NCBI GenBank assembly: GCA_964187785.1
Contig: OZ076418.1
Coordinates: 61,070,001-61,134,000, forward strand
Length of the DNA: 64,000 nucleotides
Source of the DNA: Amphiscolops sp. MND2022
Taxonomy: Eukaryota
Direction: 5' to 3'
Shown: positions 18,952 to 64,000 of the stretch, piece by piece
Position numbering within the stretch: position 1 is the first letter of the stretch
Layout: the number at the start of each line of letters is the position of its first letter
Translations under genes and position numbers: made by a program
Notes under the pieces: generated by a model
The model's database searches: none
What the model saw: only the letters and a program-made list of their open reading frames with translations
What the model was told of the DNA's origin: nothing

Positions 18952-19397
18952 AAAACAAGCCGGAACCAGGCTAAGTCGGCGGCATATCAAAGTCTCAAAA
19001 GTAGCAGAAGGACTTCAAAAGGCCAAAGTGTTGGTGAATTGGGGACCCTTTTATAATATTTTTTTCGAAAAAAGTTTCACAATGCCGAAAAAAACTAAAA
19101 TATGGACCATTTGGGATTTTTCAACATCCATTCAGTCGCAAATTTCAATGTCTCACATTGCCGAAAAAACTCAAAGGTGGGACCCTTTATTCTCGCCCGG
19201 TATTGTATGCTACGCGGAAAAAAAGTAAAACCTTTTTTGTTCAGTTCTGTGGGCCAACAGGTACATTTTGGCGACACCCTAAAGTTTTGTAGAACTTTTG
19301 GCAGAACTTTTTTGGTAACTTCAAGTGTTTCGAAAAAAAAACACTGACAAAAAGCCATGACTATAGTCGACTCTTTTTTCCAGAAAAGCGCCGACTA
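18952..19397 (-). mobile_element. DINE-1/HINE-like element copy (reverse)
   Basis: AAACAAGCCGG...AAGTCGGCGGCATATC left end; GAAAAGCGCCGACTA right end. Confidence 0.55.
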
Positions 19398-19419
19398 GCA
19401 GACGAAATGTTTAGACACA

Positions 19420-37614: not shown

Positions 37615-38752
37615 CTGACAACACACAACACAACACACTCCAAAACACTACAAAGTCATCAACGCCCAAGTAGTCAGACAGCAGCCAAGAGAGTGATTTT
37701 ACAGCGGAAGTAGCGATTGGCGGAATATTATTGTTGTTTTCAAGTATCTATTCTAGTTTTCAAATATTGTCACTTCAAATCGCCAAAGATTGGACCCAAA
37801 AAACGCCAAACAACCAAATCTCCTTCCAGAATCCAATCAGAACGAACTTGATGCGTGCATAACATGCCACAAACATTTCCAATTTTCAACCCACCATTTC
37901 GTTCACTGTGTTGAGTGGTTTGAATCTAGAAGTCGTCTGTTGGCCTACTATGACTGCCAAATCTGATTATTCTAATGCCTTACTAGCGGTCGCGGAGAGT
38001 CTAAATCTGTGTCCACTTGTTCCAAACAACGCATATATCGGGAAACACTCTAGAGGTTATTCTGTCTACCTCCCTGAAACTTTTCAGTGTTCGTGGATAG
38101 GGATCTATACTCAGAACATCTAAATCCTGTTCGCTCTGTTCACTATCCCATCACCACGACTAAATCTAATACACAAGTGATTTACGATCTTTCAATGTCG
38201 TCTATCTCAAGAACAAGTTTCGATTAGTTCTTTTCTCCAATTTGTTGCGCACTCTGGTCTGTCCCCAAGTCGACCGTGTTGTCAATAAGTCTGGTCTGGA
38301 ACAATGTTTTATGCTATGGCACAACAATTTTCAATGATTGTGTTCAATCCCGTTCCAAGAAAATTTCTCGCCGACTGTAGTTTTCCTACTACTGCAACTA
38401 CTCGTCTCATACAATCCACTTAACAAGTTATAAACTGTCACCAAAACAACTGCAACCTTGATCACCTCAAAAAACTCAATAATGGAGATGCCTGCATCTG
38501 TATATTTGAGTGAGACAAAACTCTTCAGAAAGGTGGTAAGCGTCTGTTGTATGCAGACATCTGACACGTTCAGCAACCCGGGCTATATACATGATGAAAC
38601 TCGCAACCGATTGTCCATTTAAAAGGCGGAAAAACTGACTTTTTGCTTTCGATTGCTTCATTAATGTAATGAATACTCTTGAATAAAATTTTAAACGTCA
38701 AATTTAGTGATTTTTGTCTTTTCCGCACCCTGTCTTTGCTGCAGTGACTCAC

Positions 38753-38921
38753 CTGCATGCCCCCAGCGACAGGGTACCAGTCTGCGCCGTTGGTGATGCC
38801 CTGTGCGAAGGGGTGCGAGTCTCCGGGACACTTGGGGCTGTGGGCCATCAGCGAGTGGGGCAGCGAGTAGGACTTGGCCAGTTCTCGGAACAGCTGGTCG
38901 TCGGGAGTGCTCGAAAACTTC
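38753..38921 (-). CDS. M14B carboxypeptidase exon
   Basis: Acceptor gctgtag, donor GTGAGT; 169 nt, phase 2-0; STPDDQLFRELAKSYS...GITNGADWYPVAGGMQ. Confidence 0.93.
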
Positions 38922-39939
38922 CTACAGCACACAACACAACAACTACACACGTCAACAATCAACAATGAATGCAATTGGTCGGTCAATATTTCATAAACTG
39001 TCATGTACATTTATACTAATATAACAGAAATAATAATATATCAACAGACTTCATTTTACCTCGTGGGGAGTTTTCTGATGAACCAACCCTGAAGTTAACA
39101 GCGCTCTATACGAGTCAAATAAGTACTACAAGCTGTCATGTCCCACGACACAGCAGGTACCATGCTGCAATGAATTAATTCGACCTCTGATTGTTTAAAA
39201 AACCTTAGAGGTTAATTAGGATTTTTTGAGGTCTGCCAAGCAGAAGGATGTGTGGGTTCGGGTCTCAACATCCATTCTTTCGCAAAACTCCCAAAAAATT
39301 GAAGGGGGACCCTTTGGGAATTTTTTCCGAAAAAAGGCTCGCAATGCCAAGAAAAACTGAAAGGGGGACCCTTTAGTCTCGTCCAGTATTGAATGTTACG
39401 CGGGAAACCTTTTTGGTTCAATTCCTAGGGCCAAAAGGTACAATTTCGCGCCTCAAAATTTTGTAGAACTTTTGGTAGAACTAGTTTGGACACTTCAGGT
39501 GTATCGAAAAAAAATCACTCAAGAAAAGCGCCGACTAAAAATGCATCCGCCTCCTCTCAATGGTTGATACTTGTTATTCGAAAGAAAGGTTGTGTGTTTC
39601 GACAAATCAACATCAATGATTAGCATTGACCTGGTTTTTCAGCCACTTTTCACGATTGGGTCTGGGACCGGCAGTATGCGTCGCATTTACAGGAGCAGGC
39701 CTTTTGTTTCCACAAATGAGTTGAAGAGTTAGACAGATTGACAGAGGCAAATGCTACCGCCAGAGTTTTGACACCGCTCATTAGCGGCCGCGCCAAATTT
39801 TCCCACGATTTTATTGTTAAACATACTTGAAGTTAAATTTCACTAGTTTGAAACACTTTCAGCAAAATGGCGATTTCGAAAAGAGACCCCTGCGGGGCAC
39901 AGTATTATTTCTGCTGTTAGGCTTTCATGTTCAACACAG

Positions 39940-40790
39940 AGGCGAAGCCGTGCTTCGCAAACACTTGCGAAAACTTTTCAAAAAACAGAAAATTGAGGAA
40001 TTTTTTCGAAAAAAAAATTTTTGATGAAGGTCTCCGGTAAGTCGCCGGAAACCTTGAGTAGTCCTTTATGCTCGCAAAACGTTTCGTTTCTAGTAAAAAT
40101 TGAGGGGGGCTTCGATGAAAACTAATTTTAAAAAATCGCATAGAAAAAACACCTGTCTTTGAAAAAAGATCGGATATAGAGTGCTGGGCCTGAGAAAACC
40201 TAATTTTAAGACAAAAACGACTAATTTTGAAAAATCTCGCAATGCCGAAAACTGTGAAAGGGGGCTCTTCGAGATTTGTTAACAGCCATTCTGTTTTTAA
40301 AAATATCAAAAACTGAAGGGACCCTTTGGAGACTTTGAAAAATTTTCGAAAAAAGGCGAATTTTTAACAGTCTCATAGTGTCGAAAAATCTGAAAGAGAC
40401 CCGACCCTTTGGGATTTTTTAACCTTCGTTCTGTTGCAAAATATCAAAAAAATTGAAAGGAGGACACTTTGAGGACATTAAAAGATTTCGAGAAAAGTCT
40501 CACAAAGCCGAAAAGGGTAGGCAGGTCTCAGTGCCGGAAAAGTGAGCTTTTGCTTCGGATTACTTTTAAAAAAAATAGCGCATACGCAGGGGTTCGAACA
40601 CGGACCCTCTGGGTTGAAAAAAATTAGCGCATACGCAGGGGTTCGAACCCGGAGCCTCTGGGTTGAAAAGCAGGCATCTTACCACTAGACCAAAAAAGTC
40701 TGAATTATGCGACTTGCGGTCTGAAATGAGAGAGTTGTCACCCGGAAAAAAAAATTCGCACGTTCCCATAACACTTGCTTATCGCAAGTG
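39940..40790 (-). mobile_element. HINE-like element with CACTTGCG subterminal repeats carrying a tRNA-like segment
   Basis: CACTTGCG at 39962 and CGCAAGTG at 40783; terminal hairpins; GGGACCC core; interrupts another repeat (compare 35745-35775). Confidence 0.5.
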
Positions 40791-41948
40791 TAATGATAGA
40801 AGCATATCTTAATCATTTATACAGCGCACAACTAATCATTCTACCAAATTATACCGCCTTTAATTCTTCTCGGACTGAGAAAATATAACCACTAAACGTA
40901 GAGGAATTTCGCATTCGCATTTGAATGCAGGCGAAGCTCTCGGCGAACGAATAAGTAACACTCGTTCGCTTTATTTCAATAACTCAGCATACGAATGCAT
41001 AATTACCACTCGCTCGTTCTATCGCACGAGAAACGAAATTTAAATCTCACGCCAAACAAAATATCTCAATTTTCCAGTAGGTACTCGGAATCACGACAAA
41101 AATTGAAGTGAAAAACAGTTGAATAATTCAGATTTCTAAATTATTCCTTTTATCTCAGAAGTAACAATTGCGGTTTAGCGAAAAAAGCGATGCTAGTCAA
41201 AACTCTAAGTGGTTTTTTGTTTGAGAAATGAATGTAAGAGTGAGTATAACTACGTTGGCAGTTTCTGTGTATACAAGCAGTGACAGCGTCAACGTTGCCA
41301 ATTATAAGTAGAAGTCGGAGGAGTTGCTATCCATAGCTTCGAAAATGAATATTTGGTCGAAAAATGAAGTTTCACTAGCAACCATTCAGAGTTTAGCCTT
41401 TAATTGATCATAAAATAGCGAAATAAATTGATTGACTCGGCCTTGCTCCTTCGCGCCACTGGCCAGGAAATGGCACGTCACTTCACTCCTGCACGCAGGG
41501 CACTATAGATGTGCCTTTGTAGATGATCAGGACTACGTTATAGCAATTTCTGCCAATTTTAGAACATGTAAAATCATGATGATTTCTAGCCAATAGAATT
41601 AGCTTTCGACATTGTGGGACCAAATATTCACTTTCGACGCTGTGAGACACCCCTGGTCGAAGGTAACAATTGAGGAGAAATTAGTTTCAATTTTGGTAAA
41701 TGTTTCACAACTCTTGAAGTAAAATAAAAATAGCAGTCAACTAGATTCGAAACAAAGCTGCTACTTCAATGGCCTTTCTGGTGTGACTGACGCAAATGAA
41801 CAGTTTCAAGTCGGCGCTCCGCATTAGGCTCAAAAAGCCCTGTCTCTCAAATATGCTAAACGGCTGGTTTAATGAAATTTCTAAAAAATCTCACTTTGCC
41901 GAAAACTACCCTTTGGGCCTAAAAAAGCTTTTAAAACTAAAAATGTCA

Positions 41949-42386
<438 letters not shown>

Positions 42387-43501: not shown

Positions 43502-44639
43502 CTGTTCAAACAACAACGCCTCCTCTTTACTATACATGTATGTACCTTTCCCATCTGAATTTCGCCGCCGAAATGAATGTCAATTCCGCCTGAACAAAAT
43601 GGAAAATCGCCAACGTGCAACTCAACTTTGCCAAAAAGAGAATCAATTTGGCATGAACAAAAATTCATTTCCGCCATAGCCAAACTCAATTTCAACACAG
43701 TTTCACACTCTAATTTGGCAAAAGTCATTTTCTTTTTGGCAAAATTCAGTTTCATATTGGCGATTTTTCACGAAAGCGAAATGGAAATTCGTTCACGCGA
43801 TCTTAATTTTCATCTTGGCAAAGTTCAATTTCATTTTGGCGAAAATGATATGCAAAAGGTATAGTGTATTTGTTGTGGATACGAATTTCAATTTCAAATT
43901 TAAGAATTCAAAGTTTTAAAAAAATCACAAATTTTGCATTATTTCCGATTGTGATTCAAAAAGGTAGTTTTTTCCACAAAACTGAAAAGGAAAAGAGTAA
44001 TGTTGGAATCATACTTTACAGGAAAAGTGCACGAAAATCAAAAAACAAAAGTAATTTTTCGTTCATTCATACTTCAAATGGAATTTAATGTATTTCTGTT
44101 GGTTTGATAATTGCTATAGTTTTTTTAGCAAACTTTTTTATTATTTTTCTTTTGAAACATTTTTGAGAGCTACTTTGTTGGAGTGTATATTTCATTGATA
44201 TTTATTCATTCTTCTCCAAAACTCAGAATGGAGTTGAAATAGAGACGAAAGAAGCTCTCCATAAACCAGCACGAAATGGTTAATTTTAACTGAGCGTCCG
44301 ATGCAGAGTTGATTGGTCAGTTTGAGAGCCAAGATGAGAAAGGAGAAATATTTAGGCATGAATAATAAATACCGTAGTTCGGAAAACACCTTACTTAAGA
44401 ATTTCACCGCAAAATGATAAGAGAATGCGAAATCTATAATTTTTATAACTCCGTAAAAATAATGTTCGACGAAATTACAACTGTTTTTGGCTGTTCATTT
44501 TTGAAGAATTTTTTACTTGACTTCAAAACTTTCCAAAATTATGAACAATACTGGTTTGGTGAAGAAACGTGACTTGAATGCAATAACGTGGAATTGGAAA
44601 GAGTGAACAAAATGAAACAAGTATTCATTTCTACAGCAC

Positions 44640-44926
44640 CAAAATTTTTTAGTCTCACAATGCCGAAAAAATTGAAAGGGGACCCTTTGGGAGAGTTTTT
44701 TTCCAAAAAAATCTCGCAATGCCAAAACTGAAAGGGGGGACCATTTAGTCTCATCCGGTATTGTATGGTATTGTATTGTTCAGTTCCCTGGGCCAACAGG
44801 TACAATTTAAAATTTTGTAGAACTTTTGGTAGAACTATTTTGGTCACTTCATGTGTATCGAAAAACACAGACGAAAAGCCACGACTATACTCGACTCTTT
44901 TCTCTCGAAAAGCGCCGACTAAAAAA
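44640..44926 (-). mobile_element. DINE-1/HINE-like element copy
   Basis: GGGGACCC cores and GAAAAGCGCCGACTAAAAAA end; similar partial copies at about 39200-39541, 41805-42050 and 45470-45541. Confidence 0.5.
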
Positions 44927-47799: not shown

Positions 47800-48466
47800 C
47801 TCCGTAAAAAGACTAGACCAAAACGACTCAAAACCAGGATGTCTGGAAATCGGCTGTTCAATAGAATGAACTTTTGCTAACTTTGTTCAACAGAACTGGA
47901 TGACAAAATGGCCATTTGCAGAGAATGGTTACTTTAATTCCAAAATGAGACAAAAATTCAGACCAAAAACCAAATCATCATACATGGGAAAACTAATAGA
48001 ACGCATGATGAAAAACCGTATCACAGACCATTTGCAAGAAAACAATTTGGAACTTTAGTCAAGAAGGGTTCAGGAAAACCAGATCAACTGGAAGGTACAT
48101 CACAGACCTGGTTCCAAATATTCAAGATTGTTGGGCAAGCAATAGTGTCCCTGTAGCGCTAGTGATCGATTTGGAGAAAGCATTCGACGTTGTGTGGTTT
48201 AACGGCTTGGAATTGATGGCAACATTTGAAGCCTAATCAAAAACGTTCTTGAACGCAAACTTCTCATTCGAATTGAAGGTTTTAAAAGTGCAGAATTCAA
48301 CTCAATTCAAGGCCTGCAATAAGGGTCAGATCTCATCTGTCCGAGGGATCGTGAAAAGTTTCAAAACTCTCAGCTTTGGCCCAAGATCGTAAGCCTGTAT
48401 ACTTGTTGGCTGTACCATCCAAAGAAGGATCTATTGGGAAAAATCGGCAATCTCATGCCCTTTGAC
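47800..48466 (+). mobile_element. LINE ORF2 (RT) remnant, same group as the 53-58 kb fragments
   Basis: QEGFRKTRST, VIDLEKAFDVVW and KFQNSQLWPKIVSL...YHPKKDLLGKIGNLMPFD. Confidence 0.7.
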
Positions 48467-48469
48467 AAT

Positions 48470-49300
48470 AGAATTGAAACACTAAAAAATTTCGTTGCGA
48501 TAACTATACATAAAGCAATGGGAGAAACCATTGGAAAAGTGATTACAAAAACAAGTTCAAGTCAAAGAGAATACTGTTTCTGGCAACGAGAACAACTATA
48601 CGTTATTGTTAGTCGTGTTAGAAAGTTGGAAGATATTACGTTTGTTGGTGATAAAGAAGAAACCTTGACATGTTTGTTGCTTACTTCAGAAAAATAACCA
48701 GTGGGCGAACTACTGTGACGCAATTATAAATTCAGCAGCAAATTGTTCTACTGTTACAGTTCCCCTGACACATGTGTCTCCTTTTAGACCGTCAAAGATT
48801 GAAGTGCCTGGTGAAGACGTTGGTTTTGTTTACCAATTAGTTAGTTTGAAAAAGACAGATGCTACTTTTATTGGGAATTGTCGAAATATGCGGAAAACCC
48901 TCTTCGAACACAATTCAATCTCAGAAAGTTTGCAATAATTTTATTGAAAACAATTCAGGATACATTATTCCCAAATATAATTTTTTCCTAATTAGTGTAC
49001 AAATGATATTTTTCCAATGATATATAAATCAAATATAGAGAAAATTACCAAACATTTGTGTTATTAGGGATAAAAATAACCAACATTATGAATAACTATC
49101 ATACCTGTTTTACAAATTGCAAACTTGGATATAAAAGATGACATTGAAACAGACCAAACAATGATGCCATGGGCGATTTTTGCTTTCGCTTGTGGATTCA
49201 ATGAAGATCCCCAAATCAATCATAAACAGAGAAAAGATGGCTGAAAAAATACATAAGTGTACAAAACTGCGGAGAAACAATACTTTCCACAAGACGTCTT
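48470..49300 (+). pseudogene. Pif1-type helicase C-terminus fused to SLX1-like GIY-YIG nuclease (Helitron-like element remnant)
   Basis: AITIHKAMGETI (motif V) and QLYVIVSRVR (motif VI); after a frameshift near 48670, GFVYQLVSL...TFIGNCRNMRKTLFEHNS; after about 200 bp of AT-rich sequence, PWAIFAFACGF. Confidence 0.7.
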
Positions 49301-50315
49301 AGAAATAGTCCAACAAGGAATCGAGTTTAAAATGTGAAATAAAAGACCTACGTCTTGTAATTTGTGGAAAATTCTTTTAATCTAGTATGAGTGAGTTAGT
49401 TATAATGCAAAATTTTGATTCCCTTTTAAATTATTGCTAACAGATGTAAAAATTCTTTATTATTTGTGCACATTGAGTTTGTTACCAGTAAACTTATTTC
49501 TGCACATCAAGATATCATTTTAATCTGAATTAAGACATATCAATATTGTTTTAATGAAAACATTTTGAATTCAATTTTTCTAAATACATTATTACAGTGT
49601 TCAAAAATTTGTTTGCAAAAATATCATAGTTAAAATAATCAACGTTAGATAGATATTACTTGTTAAACGTATGATATAGATTGTGAGCATTGTTTTGGTA
49701 CGCCTAAACAATGCTCACATTCAAAAAATTGAATGCGAACTTTTTTCATTTTATTGATTTAAATAATAATGATAAGAAATTTTAATATTATGGAAATGAC
49801 TTTAATATTACCAAGTAAAGCATCTTTCATATTAATTGTTTTCAAAATTAGTGAAAAAAAATTCCGATATAAAATTTTTAAATCACATATTTGAAAGTAG
49901 GAGACAAAGCAGAATTTTTCATTTCTTGTAAAATAAAGTAATTCTTAAACACATTTGTGATTTAATACAAAAATCAATAAAATGTAATACAAATGATAAA
50001 AACTATTTGAACTTATTTTTATTAGTTTATTTATTGTTTTATAGGACTCATATTCACAATTGAAAAAAGGGATGAAAAATCCTAATGTTCAATGGAAATT
50101 GATATTTAAATATATGATATAAAAGAATCTAAAAGAAAAATAATCATAAACTATTTTATTTCCCAGCGATATAATTTCTTTTTACTTCATGTTAATACTA
50201 ATAAGACAAAAAAACTTCTATTTGTTTCAGTGACCGAATCATAACTGTGTATCATTTGGTTACATTATGGAACAATTATTCGAGATGGCTACAACTTCCT
50301 TCTTCTTCAGATTAA

Positions 50316-50900
50316 ATGTCTGAATTCGAAACAAATAAAACAGCCGAAAAAGTGCTAGCAAAAGAGGTAGAGAAAAGAGGAGAAGATGATATGTTTCTGA
50401 CTGTCGTGCTAAAATCAAAGAGTTCCAAAACGGAAAAAGATTTCAATAATAAAAGAGAATGTTACGAGTACGCAGAAAATTTATTGAGACAAATGCAATT
50501 ATCAGCAGCTAAAGCTACTGTGAATGGATACAAACAAGTCTGGATTCATTTAAATTTCCAGATCATGAAGGTTAAAAGAAATTCTTTGTTTTTAAAATTA
50601 AAAAAAATGGTAAAATACATTTATAATTTCAAGGATGCAAGATTCTGCAAGAAGTGGTTGAGTGATAGTCCGGAAGTAAAAAAAAACTACCTTGTTTATG
50701 CAACCAATTTTCGAAAAAAACCAAGTATCATTCATCACAGTTGTAACCAAGCTTGAATAAAAGATCCCCACTTTATTGATCCCATCCAAAGTCATGCCAA
50801 GCCTACACGACAATACACAGCAAAAGATTTAACTTCTCGTAATGGGAAGATCAACTATGATACCTTCATAAAGAAGAGACCCGATGATTTCAACAAATAA
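50316..50900 (+). pseudogene. Unknown small gene with a probable 63-nt in-frame intron (50571-50633) and one premature TGA
   Basis: AAG|GTTAAA...TTTCAAG|GAT intron; the frame continues 47 codons past TGA 50754-50756 to TAATAA at 50898-50903. Confidence 0.4.
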
Positions 50901-51129
50901 TAATTGTAACAAAGTATCGTTCCCAATTTTCAAATTCTTTACTTTAATCAAATTAAACTTTTATTTAAAATGAAGTTTGTCTCAGAAAAAAGATTAGCAG
51001 AGAGTAATAAGATCATAACAATTTTTATAATAAAAATCTGGGAAATTACATTGGGAATTTTCATGTATTTTTCACGATGTGGAGAGTTGGTCGTACATCG
51101 CTGAGGCCGTGTATCTCTGGACGCGCGGC

Positions 51130-52329: not shown

Positions 52330-52915
52330 ATTTCAGAAAGAACAATGGATCTCAAAATGAGTATTATGCTGATAGTACTGGTTGTGTTCGTGGAGCCGGT
52401 TGCACGTGTTGATAGGGCTCAGTGCACGGTCATATCAGCCAAAAACTGGAATGGTAAACACCTGGAGAGCACATGCTGCCAAGGAAAATTGTATCTGCGA
52501 CAAGATCAATAGATTACAGCACAAAATGGCGAGTGACAGAGGGGCACCAAAGTTATTGGCAGTATGGTGACAACTATTGTCGTCATGCAGGGTGGGAATG
52601 TTCTAAAACATGTTTTCTCCGATACTATACTGAGGAGGGTGACAGGTCTGTAATTTGTCACATCGTTTTTTCTTCCATCTTTAAATATTGGGACACCAAG
52701 CCGTGTTTCCACGCTTCTGGAAATTTCGCTAGTCTCACGGTACTATCAAAGAGAAATTTTAGGGACTTAGAAAGACTGTAGCAAGTTTCTCTAAAAATTA
52801 CTGGTGGTGGATTATCAGGTCCTCTCCTTTTATATTTTATATGTAAATACAGAACTTTAGAGATGAAAGTAAAAGAATTCGGTATTCTGCCCCAACATCT
52901 CAACAAAGCAAACAC
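52330..52915 (-). mobile_element. CR1/L2-like RT N-terminal remnant; partial duplicate at 55526-55850
   Basis: GPDNPPP...KFPEAWKHG and PIFKDGRKNDVTNYRPVTLLSIVS motifs. Confidence 0.8.
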
Positions 52916-52959
52916 TTGTCAAAGTCTGACAACATAGCATGCTTGGTAGTTTTTGAAAC

Positions 52960-53958
52960 TAGTCACTTGTTTGAAAAGGCTACCAACAAAGCTTCCCGAA
53001 CTCTGAGTATTATGAAACGGAGCTATGTTAACGTTCACAATTTCAAACCACACACTGAAAAAGTTCTGCCAATGGATTAAGGATTCCATTCCGCAGTGGA
53101 CATACCTAGCTTTTTTACGGGGGACAAGCTCAAGTTCCCAAACTAAGGCTGTGGTCCGAAACTAAAGCTTTAATAACCAAAAGTTGGAATTCTCCTAAAA
53201 GACTGCTAAAAGTGCTTGCCAATCTTGTCCCAGTAGATATTCAATTGGAATCACACGCAGCCAAATTTTGCATTCAAGCATCATCAACCAAAACGAAAGC
53301 CATGACTTTCAAAAAGAAGACAGTCGAATCTGTAAACGAAGAAAGCCTAACCTTTGGAGATCACAAAGTTGAATTTGTCGAGTCAGTAAAGGTCCTTGGG
53401 ATTCTCATAGGTGACAAACTGACATTCTCGCAACAATTCGCCGCGGCGACAAGCAAAGCGTTTTAAACATTCGGACACGTCAAAAGAAGCTACTTGAACA
53501 ATCAGTCAATGAGCCCCAATACATTCAAAGTACTTTGTCAAGCCGTAGTTATCCCTCAGTGGACTTATTTAGCTTTTATCTGGAGCGTGGAAAGTTTCTG
53601 AAGTCTCAACTCTGGTCTGAGATTGTAAGCCTGTCAACGTGTCTTCGTACCATCCGAAGAAAGAATTATTAGAAGTCATCGGCAATCTGGTACCCATCGA
53701 TATCCAAATTGAAACCCACGGAGCAAAATTTGCCATCAAAGTTTTCCAACAGACCGAGGACGATCGCATCTTGAGACTTTTTGAAAATAGCAAGTCAACA
53801 ATTACCAGAAAACTGCTGGCAGACAGAACGTTTGGTTCACTCTCATCCTACAGTCAAGACTCAATGAAAAAAATAGTCTACAGAAGATGGAACAACCGAT
53901 TGAGGAATTTCAGCTTCGGATTTCAGGCCAAGAGAAGGGATTCTGCCAAAACATTTAA
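52960..53958 (+). mobile_element. Chimera of two LINE ORF2 post-RT fragments (copy 1)
   Basis: LANLVPVDIQLESHAAKFCI joined to KTKAM...VKVLGILI..KLTF...IGNLVPIDIQIETHGAKFAI. Confidence 0.75.
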
Positions 53959-54936: not shown

Positions 54937-56039
54937 CTGCAAAACTATTATACAAACCTGGCATCCCGGCCGATGATTCACAGACATCGGCATCGAGGAC
55001 AAGCTATTGGACTCCGTGAACAAGAAGGTACGGCTGGCACTCAAAATGAGTCCCAATGGCTTATCACTGAGCCTTTTCTTTCAAAGGCAAGGTGATAGTT
55101 TTGATATGACACACTTCTAAAGCAGCAAAGACGTCTTTGTAAGATAAAGTTGCGAGACAAGAGTCCCTCGCCTTTTCCTTAGGGAAGGACACAAAACAAA
55201 TGGAATATGATTTAGAACCAATGCATTCGTTCAAGTCGAAGCGAGTTAGTAAAGCAGCCTCTTAGCTTCTGCTAGATACTCAGTTTCTATTTCTAACAGT
55301 AGCAGTCAGAGAGTCGTCAGGAGGCTTTGGAATGGGGATGGCATGAAAAACATCAAGAACTGTAGATTCTGAAGAAAAAGGAATCAAAAGCGTGAAGAGC
55401 AGGCCAAAATCAGTTGATACTACCTGGGATACTAACATGGGAAACCGTATCGGTTATCAGAGACCAGTGGTAGAAGACAATTCATAATAATTTTTGAGAT
55501 GAATTTTTCCATTATCTTCGATACGATACTGAGGAGGGTGACAGGTCTGTAATTTGTCACATCGTTTTTTCTTCCATCTTTAAATATTGGGACACCAAGC
55601 CGTGTTTCCACGCTTCTGGAAATTTCGCTAGTCTCACGGTATTATTATAGAGAAGTTTTAGGGACTTAGAAAGACTGTAGCAAGTTTCTCTAAAAATTAC
55701 TGGTGGTGGGTTATCAGGTCCTCTGCTTTTATATTTTATATGTATATACAGCACTTTAGAGATGAAAGAAAAAGAATTCGGCATTCTGCCCCAACATCTC
55801 AACAAAGCGAACACTTGTCAAATTCTGACAACATAGCATGCTTGGTAGTTTTCAGTTCATGTATGTATGAACCGGTGTGTACATGTATGTATGAAGAAGA
55901 ATCTTTAAAACGTTTCATTTCTATACAGGTGTAGCTAGTATTCGAATTTACGTCGAGATACCCAACCTAAACCAAGTGAGGAACTGGCCAGCGATAATAT
56001 TCCAGAAAACAAAACCAACAAGTTGAATTTGATTCCGTC

Positions 56040-57412
56040 TTTGAGCTAAACGGTCTGAAAGTCGATTTCCCCTCAACGCTAAAGGTGCTGGGTATTCTCA
56101 TAGACAGTCACTTGTTTGAAAAGGCTACCAACAAAGCTTCCCGAACTCTGAGTATTATGAAACGGAGCTATGTTAACGTTCACAATTTCAAACCACACAC
56201 TGAAAAAGTTCTGCCAATGGATTGTGGATTCCATTCCGCAGTGGACATACCTAGCTTTTTTACGGGGGACAAGCTCAAGTTCCCAAACTAAGGCTGTGGT
56301 CCGAAACTAAAGCTTTAATAACCAAAAGTTGGAATTCTCCTAAAAGACTGCTAAAAGTGCTTGCCAATCTTGTCCCAATAGATATTCAATTGGAATCACA
56401 CGCAGCCAAATTTTGTATTCAAGCATCATCAACCAAAACGAAAGCCATGACTTTCAAAAAGAAGACAGTCGAATCTGTAAACGAAGAAAGCCTAACCTTT
56501 GGAGATCACAAAGTTGAATTTGTCGAGTCAGTAAAGGTCCTTGGGATTCTCATAGATGACAAACTGACATTCTCGCAACAATTCGCCGCGGCGACAAGCA
56601 AAGCGTTTTAAACATTCGGACACGTCAAAAGAAGCTACTTGAACAATCAGTCAATGAGCCCCAATACATTCAAAGTACTTTGTCAAGCCGTAGTTATCCC
56701 TCAGTGGACTTATTTAGCTTTTATCTGGAGCGTGGAAAGTTTCTGAAGTCTCAACTCTGGTCTGAGATTGTAAGCCTGTCAACGTGTCTTCGTACCATCC
56801 GAAGAAAGAATTATTAGAAGTCATCGGCAATCTGGTACCCATCGATATCCAAATTGAAACCCACGGAGCAAAATTTGCCATCAAAGTTTTCCAACAGACC
56901 GAGGACGATCGCATCTTGAGACTTTTTGAAAATAGCAAGTCAACAATTACCAGAAAACTGCTGGCAGACAGAACGTTTGGTTCACTCATCCTACAGTCAA
57001 GACTCAATGAAAAAAATAGTCTACAGAAGATGGAACAACCGATTGAGGAATTTCAGCTTCGGATTTCAGGCCAAGAGAAGGGATTCTGCTAAAACATTTA
57101 ACCAAGGCACACACAAAAAGGATGGTACAACTCCTAACCCAACACATTGTTCTCTGCAACTTCCAGTTCCATATTGGACGATGTTTCACTCCGGTCTGCA
57201 CATGCATGTTAGAAGAAGAATCTACAGAGCACTTTTTATACAGATGCCCCTTCTACTCAAATTTGCGTAGCTCAGAACCACCCAAGCCTCTGGTTGATCT
57301 GCTGGATAATTGTAGTTGGGAGAATTGGAAAACAACCCTGAATTTTGTTGAATTCTCGCGGAGACTTCAGACGTCTCACGGGGAGTTCCGTAATTGTCAC
57401 AAGCTTTTCTGA
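56040..57412 (+). mobile_element. Chimeric LINE ORF2 fragments (copy 2) extending to the C-terminal CCHC finger
   Basis: Near-identical to 52960-53958, then CTCMLEEESTEHFLYRCPFYSNLR. Confidence 0.8.
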
Positions 57413-57859
57413 TGCAAAATAAAAATAACGTCACAATGAAACGACATTACTAGAATCACAGAGGGAGGAACAACATCAAAAGAAAGTTCAGAAGTCCGCC
57501 TCTGAAACCAAAAGTCCGCTCAAAATTAATTTTCTATTTCTTCAACCGAGGGCCCCAGCAATATTCGTGGAGGGAGCGGACTGAGCATTACCGGGCTGGG
57601 GTGTGTGCTCGAGGCCCGTAGGAAATTGGTCTCCAATCGAAAGAAACTCTCGTGTCTCAGCTTGACATAAGTTTACACATTGTAATCCCAACGATTATAT
57701 ATTTTTATTATCAATTTGTAAATCATGGCCAGCAATTAGTGGCTTCTTCGGTCAAATTGTTTATTTGATTGGTTTAGAATAATATAAATATGTCATCTGA
57801 CAATTGTTCTTTTGGTGGCATAGATCAACATAAAAATAATTCTAAATTTTCATGTTCAA

Positions 57860-58410
57860 AATTTTAAACCACATACATTGAAAAAGTTGTGCCAGTCGAT
57901 TGTTATTCCACAGTGGACATATCTTGCTTTTCTGTGGGGAGACAAACTCAAGTTCCAAAACTCAACACTGTGGTCCGAAATGTTAGCAATAATAACTTGC
58001 AAAACTTGGAATCCTCCAAAAATGTTGCTTGAACTGCTTGCAAATCTCGTCCCAATAGACATTCAATTAGAATCGCACGCAGCGAAGTTTTGCATAAAAG
58101 CGATGCAACAACAAGAAAGTGACCCCATTCGCTCTCTCCTAATGTTAAATACGAGTCAAATTGCAAGAAAAGTAAATGCAGACAGAAAGAATACTTGGCC
58201 AACTTGATACCTACAACCCTGAAACGATGACAAACGAAACTAGAAAGCGGTGGAACGCTAGATTAAGCAGTTGTTAGAAACGAAAATCTCGGAGCATGTT
58301 CCAGTTCAAATATCAAATCCTCTTGAACGAAATTTTGGGACACAATTTTGGATCAAAAGGAAAGAATTGGACCCGGCAATAATTAAAACTATGTTGAAGG
58401 AGTTTTTTAT
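57860..58410 (+). mobile_element. Third LINE subfamily fragment covering the same post-RT region
   Basis: LCQSIVIPQWTYLAFLW...LANLVPIDIQLESHAAKFCIKA. Confidence 0.75.
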
Positions 58411-58419
58411 GAAACATTT

Positions 58420-58836
58420 TGTTGATAATCGTTATATGATATAACTTTAGAGTCTGTTTGATGCCCTGTCTATTGATTGATGACATTTTAGTACATCAAA
58501 ACTGCTACGTGCTGCTGGGCAGCCAATCAAAATTGAAGTACGTTGACTTCTCATTGAGTTAATGTTGATTTTATGTTGAAGTTTCACCGCTGTTTCTGTC
58601 AGTAATGTCATGTTTGAGCCAAATTGGCTTCTTGAACCTGAGAATCACAACAATTGGTTTATATCTTTTTATAATAATTGTTTTATCTCACAAATTGTGG
58701 GTGGTCCGTCGACAGAGAAGGTTTGTTAACCCTTAAATAGCAAAATTGAAGACATTGATCGGTAAATTACCGAGTCTTGAAGGTTTGAAATTCAAACAAA
58801 AACTCTTTTTGAACTATTTTGAAGCTTTATCATACA
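58420..58836 (+). repeat. Probable 5' LTR of BEL/Pao retrotransposon (start approximate)
   Basis: TGTT start candidate at 58420; ends ...CATACA, then TTTAT, then the PBS; the 3' LTR is outside the window so this cannot be confirmed by pairing. Confidence 0.55.
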
Positions 58837-58841
58837 TTTAT

Positions 58842-58860
58842 TGGTCCTTACTGACCCGGA
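58842..58860 (+). promoter_or_regulatory. BEL/Pao primer-binding site TGGTCCTTACTGACCCGGA
   Basis: Follows CA+TTTAT; resembles the TGGTCCTTCGAGCCGGA-type PBS common in BEL elements. Confidence 0.7.
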
Positions 58861-59006
58861 CATTGAAGACCCAGGACACGATCTCTTCCATTAAAATCTT
58901 ATTGAAAAAAGAAGACCATCAGGACTTCCAGATTTTGTGAAATTATCAAGTTTCCGAGACTTTTACCGTCATAATTGTTAGTTTTAAGCTCTCAAAGTTT
59001 GAATTG

Positions 59007-59615
59007 ATGGTTTATATCGTTGGTGCAAGTTCTTTGAAGCACGCAATCGATCAACTTTCCCCTAGAGAAAAACGGTTTCTTGCAAAATTCGTTACTGCAG
59101 TCCCATCATTGAGTTTAAATCCCAACATTTCACCTAAAAGACCTCTTATAAGCCTTTCTTACCTTTTGGAACGAGGATTTTTACACCAAAAAACAAACTT
59201 AGTGATCTGGCACGACACTATCAACAACAGTATTACGAAACATAAATCTAATTCTTACACTGGCCAAGAAGGAAGTCAACTAGCGTCAATTTTATTGAAG
59301 TACAAGGAACGAATAGCAGCTATCGTGTATTGCCAGAGGTTTGGAGCCCCTCAAATCTTCGAAACATTACGGTCAACTAATATTGTGATCATCAGAATCA
59401 CAAAGAATTTAATCTCGCGTCGCAGACAACAAGATAAATTCCTCCTACATCAATATTTGCAGCTTCATCAAGAAGGACCGTTAGAAATTCGTTCTTTACA
59501 GCTGGTTTTGAAGCATTCTTCGAATTTGAAGGCCCTCGCGCAGAATACGAGGCGGCCAAGGAAACGACTCTCGCAGAAAAAACGCCGGTTTCTGAAAAAA
59601 TTGTCAAAAACTTAA
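59007..59615 (+). CDS. ORF0: intact 202-aa ORF inside the BEL element upstream of gag, SGNH-hydrolase-like with basic C-terminus
   Basis: Uninterrupted ORF; motifs VYIVGASSL, LVIWHDTINNS and LQLHQEG occur in SGNH block I/III/V order; ends RRPRKRLSQKKRRFLKKLSKT. The fold call is motif-based only. Confidence 0.6.
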   Translation: MVYIVGASSLKHAIDQLSPREKRFLAKFVTAVPSLSLNPNISPKRPLISLSYLLERGFLHQKTNLVIWHDTINNSITKHKSNSYTGQEGSQLASILLKYKERIAAIVYCQRFGAPQIFETLRSTNIVIIRITKNLISRRRQQDKFLLHQYLQLHQEGPLEIRSLQLVLKHSSNLKALAQNTRRPRKRLSQKKRRFLKKLSKT

Positions 59616-59833
59616 AAGGTTGGACTTTATCCTCGTTGTACTTTTGAAGTTAGTGTAACCTACAGACGTGTTCTCGTCGTGGGTTTATCTGATTTCAAAC
59701 GTTGGTCAGTAGATCTAGTGTAGCCTACTGACGTGATCTCGTCGTGGGCTTATCTAGAACTACCTGATAAGGACTTTCAAACCGTAAAAACTATCGTTTT
59801 TAGTAAAATTTAAGAAAGGCAACGGTCATTGCC

Positions 59834-62800
59834 ATGGATAACGAGCCCGCTGTGGAAAAACTAGATCTTAAGCAAAAAATTAAGGTGCGAGGTGGCCACA
59901 AAGGAGCATTTACTCGTCTAGAAAGCCGTTTAGACACGTTAGTAAATATCGGAATTAGTAATGAAGATCAGCTTTGTGAAGCTGAAGCTGTTCTCTCGAA
60001 CATGAAAACAAAGGCACTTGATATCCATCGTTGGAATTTGGAAATTCAGCTTGAAACTGAAGATGATGCTAAATTTGACGCCGAAGTTGACAATGCTACC
60101 GAGTTTGACATACGTAGTGGCATTGCAATTGCTAGATTAACCGCTTTAATAGAAAACTACAAAAAAAGGTTAGAAATGAGTGATTCTACTCCTTTGCGAC
60201 GAAGTTCTTCACCGAGGAGTGCCGGCAGCAAGCTCCGCTTGCCAAAACTGAACCTGCCAACCTTCAGTGGGTCATATACTGAATGGATGTCGTTCTTTGA
60301 TCTTTTCAGGGCAGCAGTAGATTCTAATACTCAATTGACTGACTCTGAGAAACTCAATTATCTGCGCGCATGCTTGAAAGGCGATGCCGCCAAATTGATT
60401 TGCTCGGTTTCCATAACTGATGCCAACTACGCTATTGCTATGGGCCTACTCACCGATAGATACGCCAACAAACGGAGCATCGTACAAGCACACCTTCAAT
60501 CTATTTGGTCTCAACCCTCAATGAAGGTTGAATCTGCCAGCGGTCTCCGTAAACTGCTAGAAGTCACGAATGAGCATCTCCGGTCTTTGAATGAACTTGG
60601 GCAACCCACTGACCAATGGGATTCGCTCCTCGTGTTTTGGCTGTCTGAAAAAATGGACCCCGAGTCCCGCAAACAATGGCAACTTGCTCATCCAGGCACT
60701 GAACTGTTAACTTGGAATCAACTAGCAGAATTTCTCAATACAAGGAGTCGAGCACTAGAATCGAGTAATTCGAAGCCGATTCCGCAACAAGCAAATAATC
60801 AGAATGCACGAGAGAGGCATTCACACGTCTATACGGCTTCAGTATCTTGTGTAGATGGGTGCAATGAAGAACACAAGTTACACGAGTGTCTGAAATTCAA
60901 AACTCTTTCAGTACCGGAACGCTTCAGAATTGTGAAAGCAAAGCGTGGATGCTACAATTGTCTTCAAATTGGTCATAATGTCAGTAAATGTCCCTCTAAA
61001 TTTACATGTAGAGAGTGCAGACAAAGGCATCATACTATGTTGCATCGCCCTTCTCAAACGAAAACCACTTGCGTCGAAGTTGAAAACACTTCCCAAGAAA
61101 CTCAAGCTACCTCCATTGTCGAAACAGTTTCGAATAACCAATGTGCAGCTGTCAGCCCCAAGAAAACTGTTCTTTTATCAACAGCATATGTGACAATCAA
61201 GGACGCCGATGGCACTCCAGTGACCCTGCGAGCCATGCTTGACTCTGGATCTCAAGCTAGCTTTATTAATGAAAGTAGAGCCAATGCCATGAAATCAAAA
61301 ATTCATGGAAACACGATCAGCATAACACCCTTTGGATCATCCTCTTCACAAAAATCAAAGGGAGTTTTGTCAACTGTCCTCAATGAAGCAGTACATGTTG
61401 ATCTTCACATTGTTCCTAAGATTTCGAATCTCGTGCCTCCTCAGAAAGTGAAGGTCCCAACGCTTGAAAGCCTCAAAAACCTCAAACTGGCTGATCCACA
61501 CTTCAACTCCCCAGGAAGAATTGATATTTTACTCGGAGCAGATGTTCTAGAAGATGTAATGAAAGAAGGAAAACTCAAAGAGAATGGTCTGCACATTAGA
61601 AATTCAATTTTTGGTTGGATAATTTCGGGACCTGTTCAACAAGGTAATGAAATCACCAAAGGTGACATTGTTCATGTTAATAAAGTCGATATTACCCAAT
61701 TTTGGGAACTTGAAAATGTACCGGAGAAGAAAATGTTGACAAAGTCAGAATCTGAATGTGTTGAACATTTCAACCGCACAACGAAGCGGAAAGATGATGG
61801 AAGATTCGTCGTTGAAATGCCTTTGAAATCTGATGGACCTACATTGGGATCAAGCAAAGCTATCGCGATGCGCCGATTTCTTAACCTCGAGAAGAAATTG
61901 AATTCTGATTTGTCATTGAAAGAAAGGTACGCTGCATTCATTCAAGAATTCCTTGATCTTGGGCACTTAGAAAGAGTACCGGATGATCAATTGGATAATC
62001 CTAGAAATTTTTATTTGCCGCACCATTGTGTGACAAAGGAAGAAAGTTCAACTACAAAACTTCGCGTCGTTTTTGATGCCAGTGCAAAAACTTCCACCGG
62101 TTTTTCGCTCAATGATTGTTTGTTAGTGGGACCGAAATGTCAAGACGATTTGTTCAACATTCTAATCAGATTTCGCATATTCAAAATTGCAATGTCAGCA
62201 GATGTGGCGAAAATGTATCGCCAGGTTGAACTCTCTCTCGAAGATCGCGACTTGCACAGAATTCTATGGCGTAAGAATCCAAATGAACCAATTTTGACCT
62301 ATCGGATGACTCGAGTAACCTATGGTGTTGCAAGTTCTTCCTTTCATGCAATCAGATCACTTCTTGATTGTGCCAAGTCTCCAAAAACACCTGAAATCGT
62401 CAAAGATGCCATTGAACGCGACTTCTATGTTGACGATATTCTAACTGGTGCCGAAAACTTGGAAGAGGCGAAAAATTTGCAGACCGGTCTCATCGACACT
62501 CTAAAACAAGGACAATTTGACCTTCGTAAATGGACTTGCAGTGATGCCAGGCTGACCCAAGGTCTTCCACCTGAGTATCGCGAAGCAAGTGAAGACTTCC
62601 AATTCCTGAATGAGAATCATATTATCAAGACACTTGGCATTGTCTGGAGCCCCATCAAGGACAAATTCACATTCACCGTCAAACACCTGAAGCTAGATTT
62701 AACCGAAAGGCTTTCCAAACGACGAATTCTCAGTGACATTGCTAAGGTCTTTGACCCACTTGGTTGGCTTTCGCCAGTCACCCTGCAACTGAAGCAGCTT

Positions 62801-64000
62801 ATGCAAGAAGTCTGGAAATGCGGAACCGACTGGGATGCTATCCTTTCTTCTGACATTTCGGAATTTTATTGCAAATGGAGATCAAAATTGAAATTTTCGA
62901 ACGAAATTGCGATTGATCGATTCGCTCTTTGCAACGAGCAAAATGATGAGATTAATCTACACCTCTTTTGCGACGCCTCGGAAAAGGGCTATGCAGCCTG
63001 TGTTTACATTGTCTCTTGTGACACAGAAGGTAACATGAAAGCCACTCTACTGACTGGCAAATCAAAGGTGTCCCCGTTAAAAACTCAAACTATTCCTCGA
63101 CTCGAATTGTGCGCTGCCTTATTAGGGGTGAATCTCTTGGACGCTGTAGTCAAAAGTCTTTCCAAGCTGAAAATGGAAATTCAGTCAAAAAATGCGTGGA
63201 CAGATTCCACAATTGTGTTGTCTTGGCTTTTGAAGGAGCCTAGTCAATGGTCAACCTTCGTGGCGAATAGAATTTCCAAAATTCATGAGTATCCGGATGT
63301 TACTTGGCGACATGTGCCAAGTGAAGATAACGCGGCGGATGCTGCATCCAGGGGAATCGATCCTCACACGCTGAAAGAACATTCGCTTTGGTGGTCTGGT
63401 CCCCAGTGGTTGGTCACTAACAAGTTTCCAGAACAGCCTCCATTTTGTGAGACAAAAGAAGAACTAAAGCGAGATCATAAAGTGAAGCCAAACAACTCTG
63501 ATCAAGTTGTGCTGACTGTTACAGAGGCAAAGAGTACGGAAGTAATCTTCGACTTGACGAAAGAAAATTCCTTCGAGAAAGCACTGCGAATTGTTTCAAC
63601 TGTTAAGCGCGCATTTTCACGGCTTAAAAGAGAAGGGAAAAATTTTCCGGAATACATAACATTTGATGAAAGGACTGAAGCGCTTTGCATCCTACTACGA
63701 CAGGAACAAGGCTTGTTCTACAAGAATGAGATATCGACCTTGAAGACTAAAAACCAAGTCGATAAATCCAGTAAAATGTTGAAGCTTTACCCATTTCTTC
63801 ATGAAGATGTTTTGTGTGTGGGTGGACGTCTTGTGCATGCGAACTTGCCTGACGAGGCGAAGTACCAAAGAATCATTCCTCCTGAGAGTCAACTTGCTCG
63901 ATTGATAATTGCTAATGCCCATGAGAAAACTTTGCATGGTGGCACCAACCAAGTTCTGGCACAAATCCGAACACGTTTTTGGATCCCAGCCAGTCGTGCT
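59834..64000 (+). CDS. BEL/Pao gag-pol polyprotein (open to the window edge, 1389 codons)
   Basis: LPKLNLPTFSG...KLNYL (DUF1759-type gag), three Cys-His knuckles, LDSGSQASF protease, YLPHH/KLRVVFDASA and YVDD RT, FCDASEKGY/TIPRLEL RNase H, start of integrase LHGG...RFWI. Absence from the ORF track is consistent with no stop before the edge. Confidence 0.95.
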   Translation, partial: MDNEPAVEKLDLKQKIKVRGGHKGAFTRLESRLDTLVNIGISNEDQLCEAEAVLSNMKTKALDIHRWNLEIQLETEDDAKFDAEVDNATEFDIRSGIAIARLTALIENYKKRLEMSDSTPLRRSSSPRSAGSKLRLPKLNLPTFSGSYTEWMSFFDLFRAAVDSNTQLTDSEKLNYLRACLKGDAAKLICSVSITDANYAIAMGLLTDRYANKRSIVQAHLQSIWSQPSMKVESASGLRKLLEVTNEHLRSLNELGQPTDQWDSLLVFWLSEKMDPESRKQWQLAHPGTELLTWNQLAEFLNTRSRALESSNSKPIPQQANNQNARERHSHVYTASVSCVDGCNEEHKLHECLKFKTLSVPERFRIVKAKRGCYNCLQIGHNVSKCPSKFTCRECRQRHHTMLHRPSQTKTTCVEVENTSQETQATSIVETVSNNQCAAVSPKKTVLLSTAYVTIKDADGTPVTLRAMLDSGSQASFINESRANAMKSKIHGNTISITPFGSSSSQKSKGVLSTVLNEAVHVDLHIVPKISNLVPPQKVKVPTLESLKNLKLADPHFNSPGRIDILLGADVLEDVMKEGKLKENGLHIRNSIFGWIISGPVQQGNEITKGDIVHVNKVDITQFWELENVPEKKMLTKSESECVEHFNRTTKRKDDGRFVVEMPLKSDGPTLGSSKAIAMRRFLNLEKKLNSDLSLKERYAAFIQEFLDLGHLERVPDDQLDNPRNFYLPHHCVTKEESSTTKLRVVFDASAKTSTGFSLNDCLLVGPKCQDDLFNILIRFRIFKIAMSADVAKMYRQVELSLEDRDLHRILWRKNPNEPILTYRMTRVTYGVASSSFHAIRSLLDCAKSPKTPEIVKDAIERDFYVDDILTGAENLEEAKNLQTGLIDTLKQGQFDLRKWTCSDARLTQGLPPEYREASEDFQFLNENHIIKTLGIVWSPIKDKFTFTVKHLKLDLTERLSKRRILSDIAKVFDPLGWLSPVTLQLKQLMQEVWKCGTDWDAILSSDISEFYCKWRSKLKFSNEIAIDRFALCNEQNDEINLHLFCDASEKGYAACVYIVSCDTEGNMKATLLTGKSKVSPLKTQTIPRLELCAALLGVNLLDAVVKSLSKLKMEIQSKNAWTDSTIVLSWLLKEPSQWSTFVANRISKIHEYPDVTWRHVPSEDNAADAASRGIDPHTLKEHSLWWSGPQWLVTNKFPEQPPFCETKEELKRDHKVKPNNSDQVVLTVTEAKSTEVIFDLTKENSFEKALRIVSTVKRAFSRLKREGKNFPEYITFDERTEALCILLRQEQGLFYKNEISTLKTKNQVDKSSKMLKLYPFLHEDVLCVGGRLVHANLPDEAKYQRIIPPESQLARLIIANAHEKTLHGGTNQVLAQIRTRFWIPASRA

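Follow-up and report, generated by a model that had tools for sequence, protein, structure and literature searches.

The locus examined here raises the question of why an intact open reading frame with the motif order of an SGNH hydrolase should lie between the primer-binding site and gag of a BEL/Pao retrotransposon: does it belong to the element, what might its product do, and how could both it and the gag-pol frame behind it be translated? The window, i.e., the whole stretch of DNA analysed, comprises 64,000 nucleotides of Amphiscolops sp. MND2022 (contig OZ076418.1), and all features discussed below lie on its plus strand. A candidate 5' LTR (TGT...ACA, 58420..58836) with a TATAA at 58670 is followed by a primer-binding-site-like sequence (PBS; 58842..58859), which begins with TGG five nucleotides past the terminal CA of the LTR (58835-58836), a leader without ATG (58860..59006, within an upstream stretch from 58613 to 59006 in which ATG is absent), the frame in question, hereafter ORF0 (59007..59615, 202 codons without a stop), a spacer of 218 nt (59616..59833) and a gag-pol frame that begins at 59834 and is still open where the window ends at 64000. 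These positions coincide with those of an earlier sequence-only reading of this DNA, which had likewise taken ORF0 to be uninterrupted in the manner of gag-pol. The 3' end of the LTR is placed by the PBS and its 5' end was guessed among several TGT starts, with 58420 being a plausible start. The PBS resembles the primer sites of BEL elements; no tRNA gene occurs in the window, and neither a second LTR, a solo LTR nor a target-site duplication is seen within these 64 kb, which stop before the 3' end of the element. Outside the element, upstream similarity to a degenerate repeat (57846..58272), which by our reading is LINE-like and which is without a Pfam match, stops at 58272; related copies of this repeat lie at 53025-53909 and 56170-57052.

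The assignment of the element itself rests on its single gag-pol frame, of which 1388 residues can be read in the window and which matches the Pfam families DUF1759 (E 8e-38) and Peptidase_A17 (E 4e-50). Inspection of the translation reveals a triple Cys-His box in gag (60848-61045; boxes at residues 339, 373 and 392, the first with three residues separating its cysteines), followed by the protease motif LDSG (61235-61252), the reverse transcriptase motif YVDD (62426-62437), the RNase H motif DAS (62966-62980) and the beginning of the integrase zinc finger (63920-63943). The triple Cys-His box is a defining Pao-like character that accompanies the order protease (DSG), reverse transcriptase (YVDD), RNase H (DAS) and integrase (PMC554778); the window gag-pol displays both the box and this order, together with the Pao-type Pfam domains. 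The integrase core lies beyond the window and is present in P0189, a complete polyprotein of 1737 residues which is 98.8% identical to the window gag-pol and belongs to a cluster of 25 near-identical gag-pol sequences, and on account of this complete and clustered copy the element family can be regarded as young and multicopy. Named gag-pol relatives are from insects and reach at most about 41% identity, and in a quick reverse transcriptase tree, which took those 94 of the 109 gag-pol matches that were long enough, the window sequence groups with ENA records at 53-60% identity (SH-aLRT 93). The element resembles Pao, BEL, Ninja and Sinbad in its single gag-pol frame, triple Cys-His box and enzyme order, and is unlike them in carrying an additional ORF of 202 codons and two hairpins between the primer site and gag (PMC554778). 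A decayed gypsy element is also present in the window, and no copy of ORF0 lies near it.

ORF0 cannot be dismissed as a chance frame: of 192 candidates, 40 are related to it at E<=0.001, a profile retrieves 967 clusters (at 50% identity) at E<=0.001, 193 of them at 1e-30, and its structural model has a mean pLDDT of 90.8. Its closest relative, which sits in a cluster of 12 near-identical sequences, differs at 2 of 202 residues, and the 150 profile matches listed range from 110 to 377 residues, with most being about 200 residues long. The family statistics given below derive from 187 sequences, namely the query, the 40 relatives and 146 new sequences among the best 150 of the 967 clusters, and the median pairwise identity of their aligned rows is 32%. 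These proteins usually begin with the domain itself: the reading frame of ORF0 opens directly with the first domain strand, and 136 of the 151 rows that cover position 1 start there with a methionine. No Pfam match was obtained for ORF0, and 36 family members gave merely scattered weak matches; likewise, NCBIfam yielded nothing for five proteins of the family, and the ESM Atlas did not recognise it. Hence, the family is overlooked by standard annotation. Queries of the PDB sequences with ORF0 and with two profiles gave no match, the actin rows that appeared in this search (E 1.9) being due to chance. Further, none of five pattern matches from bacterial and archaeal genomes was confirmed, no other copy of ORF0 occurs within the window, and no ORF0-like stretch was found inside the 109 gag-pol proteins. 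Fused or longer forms of 561-2000 residues were also absent among 7999 candidates, which is weak evidence, and lengths of 355-560 residues fall outside its range.

The first part of the question is whether ORF0 is a component of the BEL element, as the sequence-only reading had claimed, or a separate insertion or neighbouring gene, with the true element beginning downstream or normally lacking it. For the latter possibility one might point to the missing second LTR in a window that stops short of the 3' end of the element, to the size of the ORF0 family, which far exceeds that of the close BEL clusters, and to P0177, a relative found in another setting. Against it stands, first, the PBS-like site upstream of ORF0, a counterpart of which recurs in translated form upstream of ORF0 in the relative P0036: this protein is 79% identical to ORF0 over the matched part, and its N-terminal extension of 55 residues corresponds to a translated PBS and leader like those of the window (E 5e-9). 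Second, the run free of ATG that follows the ORF0 start terminates exactly at the start of gag, and so ties the two frames functionally. Third, copies at 99% identity of both ORF0 and gag-pol exist on other records, in keeping with young multicopy clusters of both ORFs. We consider it very probable from these sequence features that ORF0 lies inside the LTRs, as first proposed, and a location outside the element appears far-fetched. Among 25 N-terminal extensions, P0036 is the single one clearly matching the leader, and none of 30 C-terminal extensions matches the spacer. Additionally, a relative of ORF0 (P0035, 44% identical) and a BEL gag-pol (P0197, 56%) come from records of equal size, which is one such case among 231 pairs with a chance probability of 1-11%.

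Membership of ORF0 in this element does not imply that the family is restricted to such elements. PHD fingers are known from the ORF1 proteins of LINEs, and P0177 continues into a PHD finger (E 3e-9), a junction that may be fortuitous or may reflect a genuine second setting. In view of this junction, and since the 967 ORF0 clusters far outnumber the close BEL clusters, a distribution limited to BEL elements is disfavoured, and the family probably extends beyond a single BEL lineage.

AlphaFold2 models of ORF0 and of its relative P0043, which is 39% identical to it (mean pLDDT 96.8), support the presence of an SGNH fold. In searches of 48,161 chains the ORF0 model finds OatA as its best match (Z 10.5, rmsd 3.2, 139 residues aligned) and the P0043 model an acetyl xylan esterase (Z 11.1, rmsd 3.6, 154 residues aligned), with the majority of 50 fold-match rows being titled as GDSL/SGNH esterases, O-acetyltransferases or OSK, at sequence identities of 5-18%. 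Foldseek returned no chain at E<=0.001 for the ORF0 model (best 5.7e-3) and four for that of P0043 (best 4e-4, a GDSL lipase); a viral structure library likewise contained nothing at E<=0.001 for ORF0, its top rows including phage SGNH domains. The esterase of ZfL2-1, the structure of which (4C1B) is a domain-swapped dimer, is absent among the listed rows of every fold search. A homodimer prediction for ORF0, run without an alignment, was uninformative (score 0.00). As the top Z-scores are tied, the fold searches say nothing on the substrate of ORF0.

Within this predicted fold, the three motifs from which the sequence-only reading had deduced an SGNH order are all present, and the models and the register of the active site now add to that reading. 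The nucleophile position of block I is occupied by Ser8 (59028..59030; 157 of 173 rows), which falls on the block I nucleophile in all 11 proteins common to the fold lists and to Table 2 of PMC10792757, and the base position of block V by His154 (150 of 163 rows), which falls on the corresponding position in seven of these 11, the other four being off by 1 to 7 residues; this register was obtained by arithmetic from the ends of aligned ranges, as distinct from a residue-level superposition. Of 145 rows, 123 carry both residues. At the block II glycine position, assigned by motif, the window copy and its nearest relatives bear a serine, Ser34 (59106..59108), a feature that the sequence-only reading had not mentioned; across the family glycine is found in 145 of 173 rows and serine in 23. 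Block III (59208..59228) comprises Trp68 (180/185), His69 (176/185), Asp70 (170/185), Asn73 (160/186) and Asn74 (173/186), with Asn73 being assigned to this block by motif, after a strand formed by residues 65-67. In block V (59457..59468), Leu151 takes the site of the usual catalytic aspartate, the lack of which had been remarked on in the window copy and proves to be family-wide: three positions before the histidine, aspartate is found in none of the 133 histidine-bearing rows and glutamate in five. The acetyl xylan esterase Axe2, known from its S15A, D191A and H194A mutants, agrees with this picture, in that His154 corresponds to H194 and Leu151 to the aspartate.

An SGNH protein devoid of this aspartate need not be inactive. 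Of 30 SGNH structures surveyed, 23 have the aspartate and five use a main-chain oxygen in place of the acid (PMC10792757), so that a dyad enzyme is plausible for ORF0. We lean with modest confidence, judging by the conserved positions, towards a catalytically active ORF0. Given that the serine nucleophile, the oxyanion asparagine and the histidine base are kept while the aspartate is not, ORF0 would most likely be a slow Ser-His acyl hydrolase or transferase.

The conserved positions also offer hints of the source of the domain. His69 lies four residues before Asn73, just as H191 lies before N195 in the ZfL2-1 esterase, a correspondence at the level of the motif, and H191 has been termed transposon-specific (PMC3905857). 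The combination of Pro-Gly in block II, a histidine four residues before the asparagine in block III and Leu-His-Pro in block V is found, among the 30 structures of the survey, in 4C1B alone (PMC10792757). In the strand after block III, a conserved serine comparable to S228 of ZfL2-1 is absent and Tyr108 (171/184) furnishes the conserved hydroxyl, as judged from position and not from a residue-level alignment. At the level of motifs, the combination shared with 4C1B hints that ORF0 descended from retroelement esterases. The esterases of this kind in ORF1 of ZfL2-1 and in the CR1/L2, RTEX and Penelope-like elements share with ORF0 an SGNH domain encoded 5' of the reverse transcriptase, a basic surface and, in the case of 4C1B, this motif combination (PMC3905857). 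ORF0 differs from the ZfL2-1 type in being a stand-alone protein of an LTR element with its own Gag, in lacking a preceding coiled coil and the catalytic aspartate, in having its basic segment at the C-terminus and in giving no detectable sequence match.

Beyond the LINEs, extra SGNH ORFs are spread over unrelated retroelements: Vesta, a gypsy-like element of a bdelloid rotifer, and the Terminons carry a GDSL ORF3 (PMC5408684). The ORF3 of Vesta lies downstream of pol and has catalytic residues described as intact, and ORF3s are said to be expressed, as a rule, from a spliced RNA (PMC5408684); ORF0, by contrast, precedes the gag of a BEL element and is apparently read by leaky scanning. Ngaro elements also possess an SGNH accessory ORF, ORF4, in an element of different retroelement order in which the ORF follows the recombinase (PMC9210276). 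Position upstream of gag likewise has its parallel, in that the extra ORF of the plant Ogre elements lies there. For Ogre and Retrosat2, which are plant gypsy elements, extra ORFs are described without an assigned function or fold (PMC6431247). A literature search, which was conducted mostly at the level of titles and covered main publications, found neither an SGNH ORF in a BEL/Pao element nor one upstream of the gag of an LTR element, and in the text of a BEL/Pao survey the words 'esterase', 'hydrolase' and 'upstream' do not occur (PMC3118150). Within the scope of that search, the suggestion of an undescribed lineage holds as regards a BEL element with a 5' SGNH ORF; it has to be qualified in that the ORF0 family is probably wider than one BEL lineage and in that SGNH ORFs are already known from Vesta LTR elements (PMC5408684). 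Every ingredient has a precedent elsewhere, and it is the combination and the ORF0 family that appear to be undescribed.

The C-terminal tail (residues 177-202, 59535..59612), described as very basic at the outset, contains 12 lysines or arginines in 26 residues and no aspartate or glutamate, and closes in a predicted helix; at least 30% lysine or arginine is found in the tail of 117 of the 132 family rows that bear one. The predicted pI is 11.1 for the whole protein and 10.3 for the core, and the domain is preceded by no hydrophobic, transmembrane or coiled-coil segment (maximal 19-residue hydropathy 0.86). The ZfL2-1 esterase has been described as a slow enzyme whose binding to acidic liposomes is charge-driven (PMC3905857), and by analogy we tentatively propose, at somewhat less than an even chance, that the target of ORF0 would be a lipid or membrane.

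The same charge can be read differently, with ORF0 being mainly an RNA-binding protein of SGNH fold like the OSK domain of Oskar (5A4A; Z 7.7 and 8.6), which supplies a precedent for RNA binding in this fold. Under such an interpretation, ORF0 bound to the hairpins described below might block scanning and so act as a packaging switch, or it might shuttle the RNA between nucleus and cytoplasm. The pI, the conserved basic tail and the absent catalytic aspartate would suit this role, as would the appearance of OSK among the fold matches (Z 7.7, rmsd 3.9, 144 residues aligned) and the two structured copies within the scanning path. However, OSK lacks the serine, asparagine and histidine (PMC10792757), all of which ORF0 has, and the ORF0 family keeps both Ser8 and His154 in the rows counted above (123/145); further, the ZfL2-1 esterase bound lipids and not oligo-A RNA (PMC3905857). 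We therefore hold a chiefly RNA-binding ORF0, and likewise its use as a switch or shuttle, to be unlikely.

An enzymatic ORF0 could alternatively be directed at the host, deacylating a protein, a glycan or a signalling lipid and thereby weakening silencing or immunity, with the tail serving as a nuclear or nucleolar signal. O-acetyltransferases and acetylesterases do stand beside lipases among the top fold matches, the domain is not preceded by a transmembrane or coiled-coil segment, and suppressors of silencing are among the products of pararetroviral accessory ORFs (PMC5902531). Yet the Z-scores are tied, and a common fold does not give the substrate; moreover, the ZfL2-1 esterase did not deacetylate histone peptides (PMC3905857), and nothing in the present analysis points to a host target. 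This option strikes us as doubtful, and a lipid- or membrane-directed acyl hydrolase or transferase remains our tentative choice.

The manner in which ORF0 and gag-pol could both be translated is suggested by the distribution of ATG, which the sequence-only reading had not considered. On the plus strand, the ORF0 start is the only ATG from 58613 to 59833, and the 824 nt from there to the start of gag (59010..59833) are free of it in all frames, where 13.9 would be expected from base composition and 7.8 from dinucleotide shuffles, 0 of 3000 of which lacked it entirely. ATG is the sole one of the 64 trinucleotides missing from this run, the opening 824 nt of gag contain 17, and neither strand of the window has a longer gap than the one that separates the ATGs of ORF0 and gag (827 vs 465). 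The start of ORF0 has a moderate context (T at -3, G at +4) and that of gag a strong one (G at -3 and +4). A weak or moderate first AUG followed by a strong downstream AUG is given as a sign of leaky scanning in a review on pararetroviruses, where AUG-cleared accessory ORFs mark this mode of translation in RTBV and the badnaviruses and scanning across about 900 AUG-free nt is reported for RTBV (PMC5902531). Both sequence features of the RTBV type, i.e., the two start contexts and the complete lack of AUG between the two starts, are found here.

As this depletion was noticed after the fact in the window, it was examined family-wide via the methionine content of the ORF0 proteins. Internal methionines make up 84 of 34,281 residues and are entirely absent from 107 of 155 near-complete rows, against 286 of 18,032 in 13 related gag-pols, a control drawn from gag-pol and not from other esterases and set beside family rows that are related to each other. 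Methionine is the most depleted of the 20 residues in the family (0.16-fold, i.e., about sixfold), and dipeptides able to hide an out-of-frame ATG stand at 0.71 and 0.38, vs 1.07 and 1.27. Broken down by source, methionine accounts for 6 of 6,492 residues in the single-sequence matches and 70 of 24,029 in the profile matches, a search that may favour methionine-poor rows. Once the protein sequence of the window ORF0 is taken as given, its lack of out-of-frame ATG falls short of significance (P 0.13). The simplest reading of these counts is that ORF0 proteins in general would be encoded by 5' cistrons which ribosomes must pass. For the window element, the sequence makes it likely that leaky scanning yields both the ORF0 protein and Gag-Pol from one RNA. 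The resemblance to RTBV and the badnaviruses, in which small AUG-cleared ORFs I and II precede a Gag-Pol-like polyprotein, with a scan of about 900 nt, is one of arrangement: these are plant pararetroviruses with unrelated proteins and a shunt across a structured leader, and scanning is experimentally established for them (PMC5902531), as against inferred for ORF0. AUG-purged scanning past an accessory ORF was not found for any animal LTR retrotransposon in the literature search, mostly of titles.

A further feature new to this analysis is the structure of the spacer, which harbours two tandem hairpins of the same build at 59643..59699 (-25.6 kcal/mol) and 59708..59764 (-28.2 kcal/mol for 59707-59771), each with an outer stem, a 3x3 internal loop, a 7-bp stem, a one-base bulge, a 4-bp stem and a hexaloop. 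The spacer folds more stably than its shuffled versions (z -4.9, 0/200) and yields the strongest of 53 windows of 120 nt tested over 58400-60599 (z -10); the leader around the ORF0 AUG, by comparison, is unremarkable in its structure (z 0.67). Taken together, the two hairpins reach -57.1 kcal/mol on the plus strand vs -35.6 on the minus strand. Every one of the 16 pairs common to the two hairpins is preserved, three via double changes and one via a single change, with two more differences sitting in the bulge and the loop; with two copies this covariation control is a weak one, as 64 of 500 shuffles scored equally high. Rfam gave no match to the hairpins at E<=1. A trace of a hairpin in the C-terminal extension of the relative P0020 was not significant (p 0.11) and was set aside. 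Packaging signals of retroviruses are situated between the primer site and gag, and from their equivalent position we give the tandem hairpins an even chance of being a packaging or protein-binding signal.

The hairpins also bear on the route to gag-pol, since as structures in its path they could slow scanning, which counts against pure scanning and in favour of regulation. It is conceivable that ORF0 is part of the element and that gag-pol is reached in another way, be it from a spliced or trans-spliced RNA, by a ribosome shunt or by internal initiation at the hairpins; the stability of these structures just before gag, an acceptor-like run at 59797 and the sheer length of an 824-nt scan speak for this. 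Yet none of these routes requires an ORF0 free of AUG, and the window copy lacks internal AUG, with the family being strongly depleted of it; furthermore, a donor-like site is absent from 58601-59834 by the patterns used. A route replacing scanning therefore seems rather improbable to us, although along the final 200 nt scanning could be combined with a shunt or with internal entry. Leaky scanning remains the preferred reading.

Taking these strands together, the reading that we hold to, with slightly better than even confidence as a whole, is that of an accessory SGNH cistron, read by leaky scanning and encoding a membrane-linking enzyme, accompanied by a hairpin signal. A young, multicopy BEL/Pao element would have acquired an accessory gene in the interval that separates primer site and gag, the probable donor being the pool of retroelement esterases, and a single genomic RNA would serve ORF0 and gag-pol. 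Ribosomes would reach the ORF0 AUG first, and a share of them would initiate there and make the ORF0 protein; because the context of this AUG is only moderate, part of them would pass it, scan 824 AUG-free bases, melt the two hairpins and initiate at the strong AUG of gag-pol. The ORF0 product would be a soluble, very basic Ser-His acyl hydrolase or transferase that binds acidic membranes by charge, in analogy with ZfL2-1, and the RNA of the element via its Arg/Lys tail, and it may help particles to assemble on, or travel with, membranes.

These observations extend a pattern in which retroelements captured SGNH esterases repeatedly, both as fusions in the ORF1 of LINEs and in rotifer and Ngaro elements. 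As ORF0 is small and stand-alone, and belongs to a young element with its own Gag, the role of the esterase would be separable from capsid formation. The purge of AUG suggests that a translation strategy of plant pararetroviruses operates in an animal LTR retrotransposon, and it provides a simple sequence signature for locating other 5' accessory genes. More speculatively, and at a level of likelihood that we consider slight, ORF0 may represent a large family, missed by annotation, of 5' cistrons that plug into diverse retroelements of one animal lineage and encode AUG-purged Ser-His SGNH enzymes, which with their basic tail bind the tandem hairpins behind their own ORF, switch the RNA between Gag-Pol translation and packaging, and bring it to membranes. 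If this were true, ORF0 would replace a matrix or envelope function in LTR elements that lack an envelope.

In the spacer between ORF0, the 202-aa SGNH-fold reading frame, and the BEL/Pao gag, the outer stem of the second of two tandem hairpins contains an 8-nt palindrome (59710-59717), which could be used for RNA dimerisation. A further, small hairpin (59818-59833; -6.1 kcal/mol) is predicted immediately 5' of the gag AUG.

Elsewhere in the window, the minus strand carries exons of a host zinc carboxypeptidase (38570-42386; Peptidase_M14, E 3e-8 and 1e-4), as well as several pieces of a decayed gypsy-type element (about 26000-29600; integrase core, E 9e-9, with a weak protease match), near which no relative of ORF0 was found. 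A degenerate LINE-like remnant has been recently duplicated, its copies at 52613-53958 and 55512-57101 sharing 95-99% identity at a spacing of about 3.1 kb, and further relatives of it lie at 48347-48481 and 57846-58272. A dispersed repeat family, abundant and built around a G-run/C-run core, occurs in both orientations (2600-3100, 11700-13000, 19000-19400, 39300-40500 and 44600-44900). Within an AT-rich island (49000-51000; 27% GC), a 146-aa ORF (50316-50756) returned no match in a Pfam search.

Among related records, P0192 and P0193 show 53-54% identity to the gag-pol of the window; their contigs, of 6775 and 7052 nt, have about 1.5-1.8 kb to spare, which could accommodate a leader and an ORF0. 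Further, in P0177, a relative of ORF0 itself, the same reading frame leads on into a PHD finger, matched in Pfam at E 3e-9, a junction which suggests either that the ORF0 family also adjoins LINE-type ORF1 genes or that this member was struck by an insertion.
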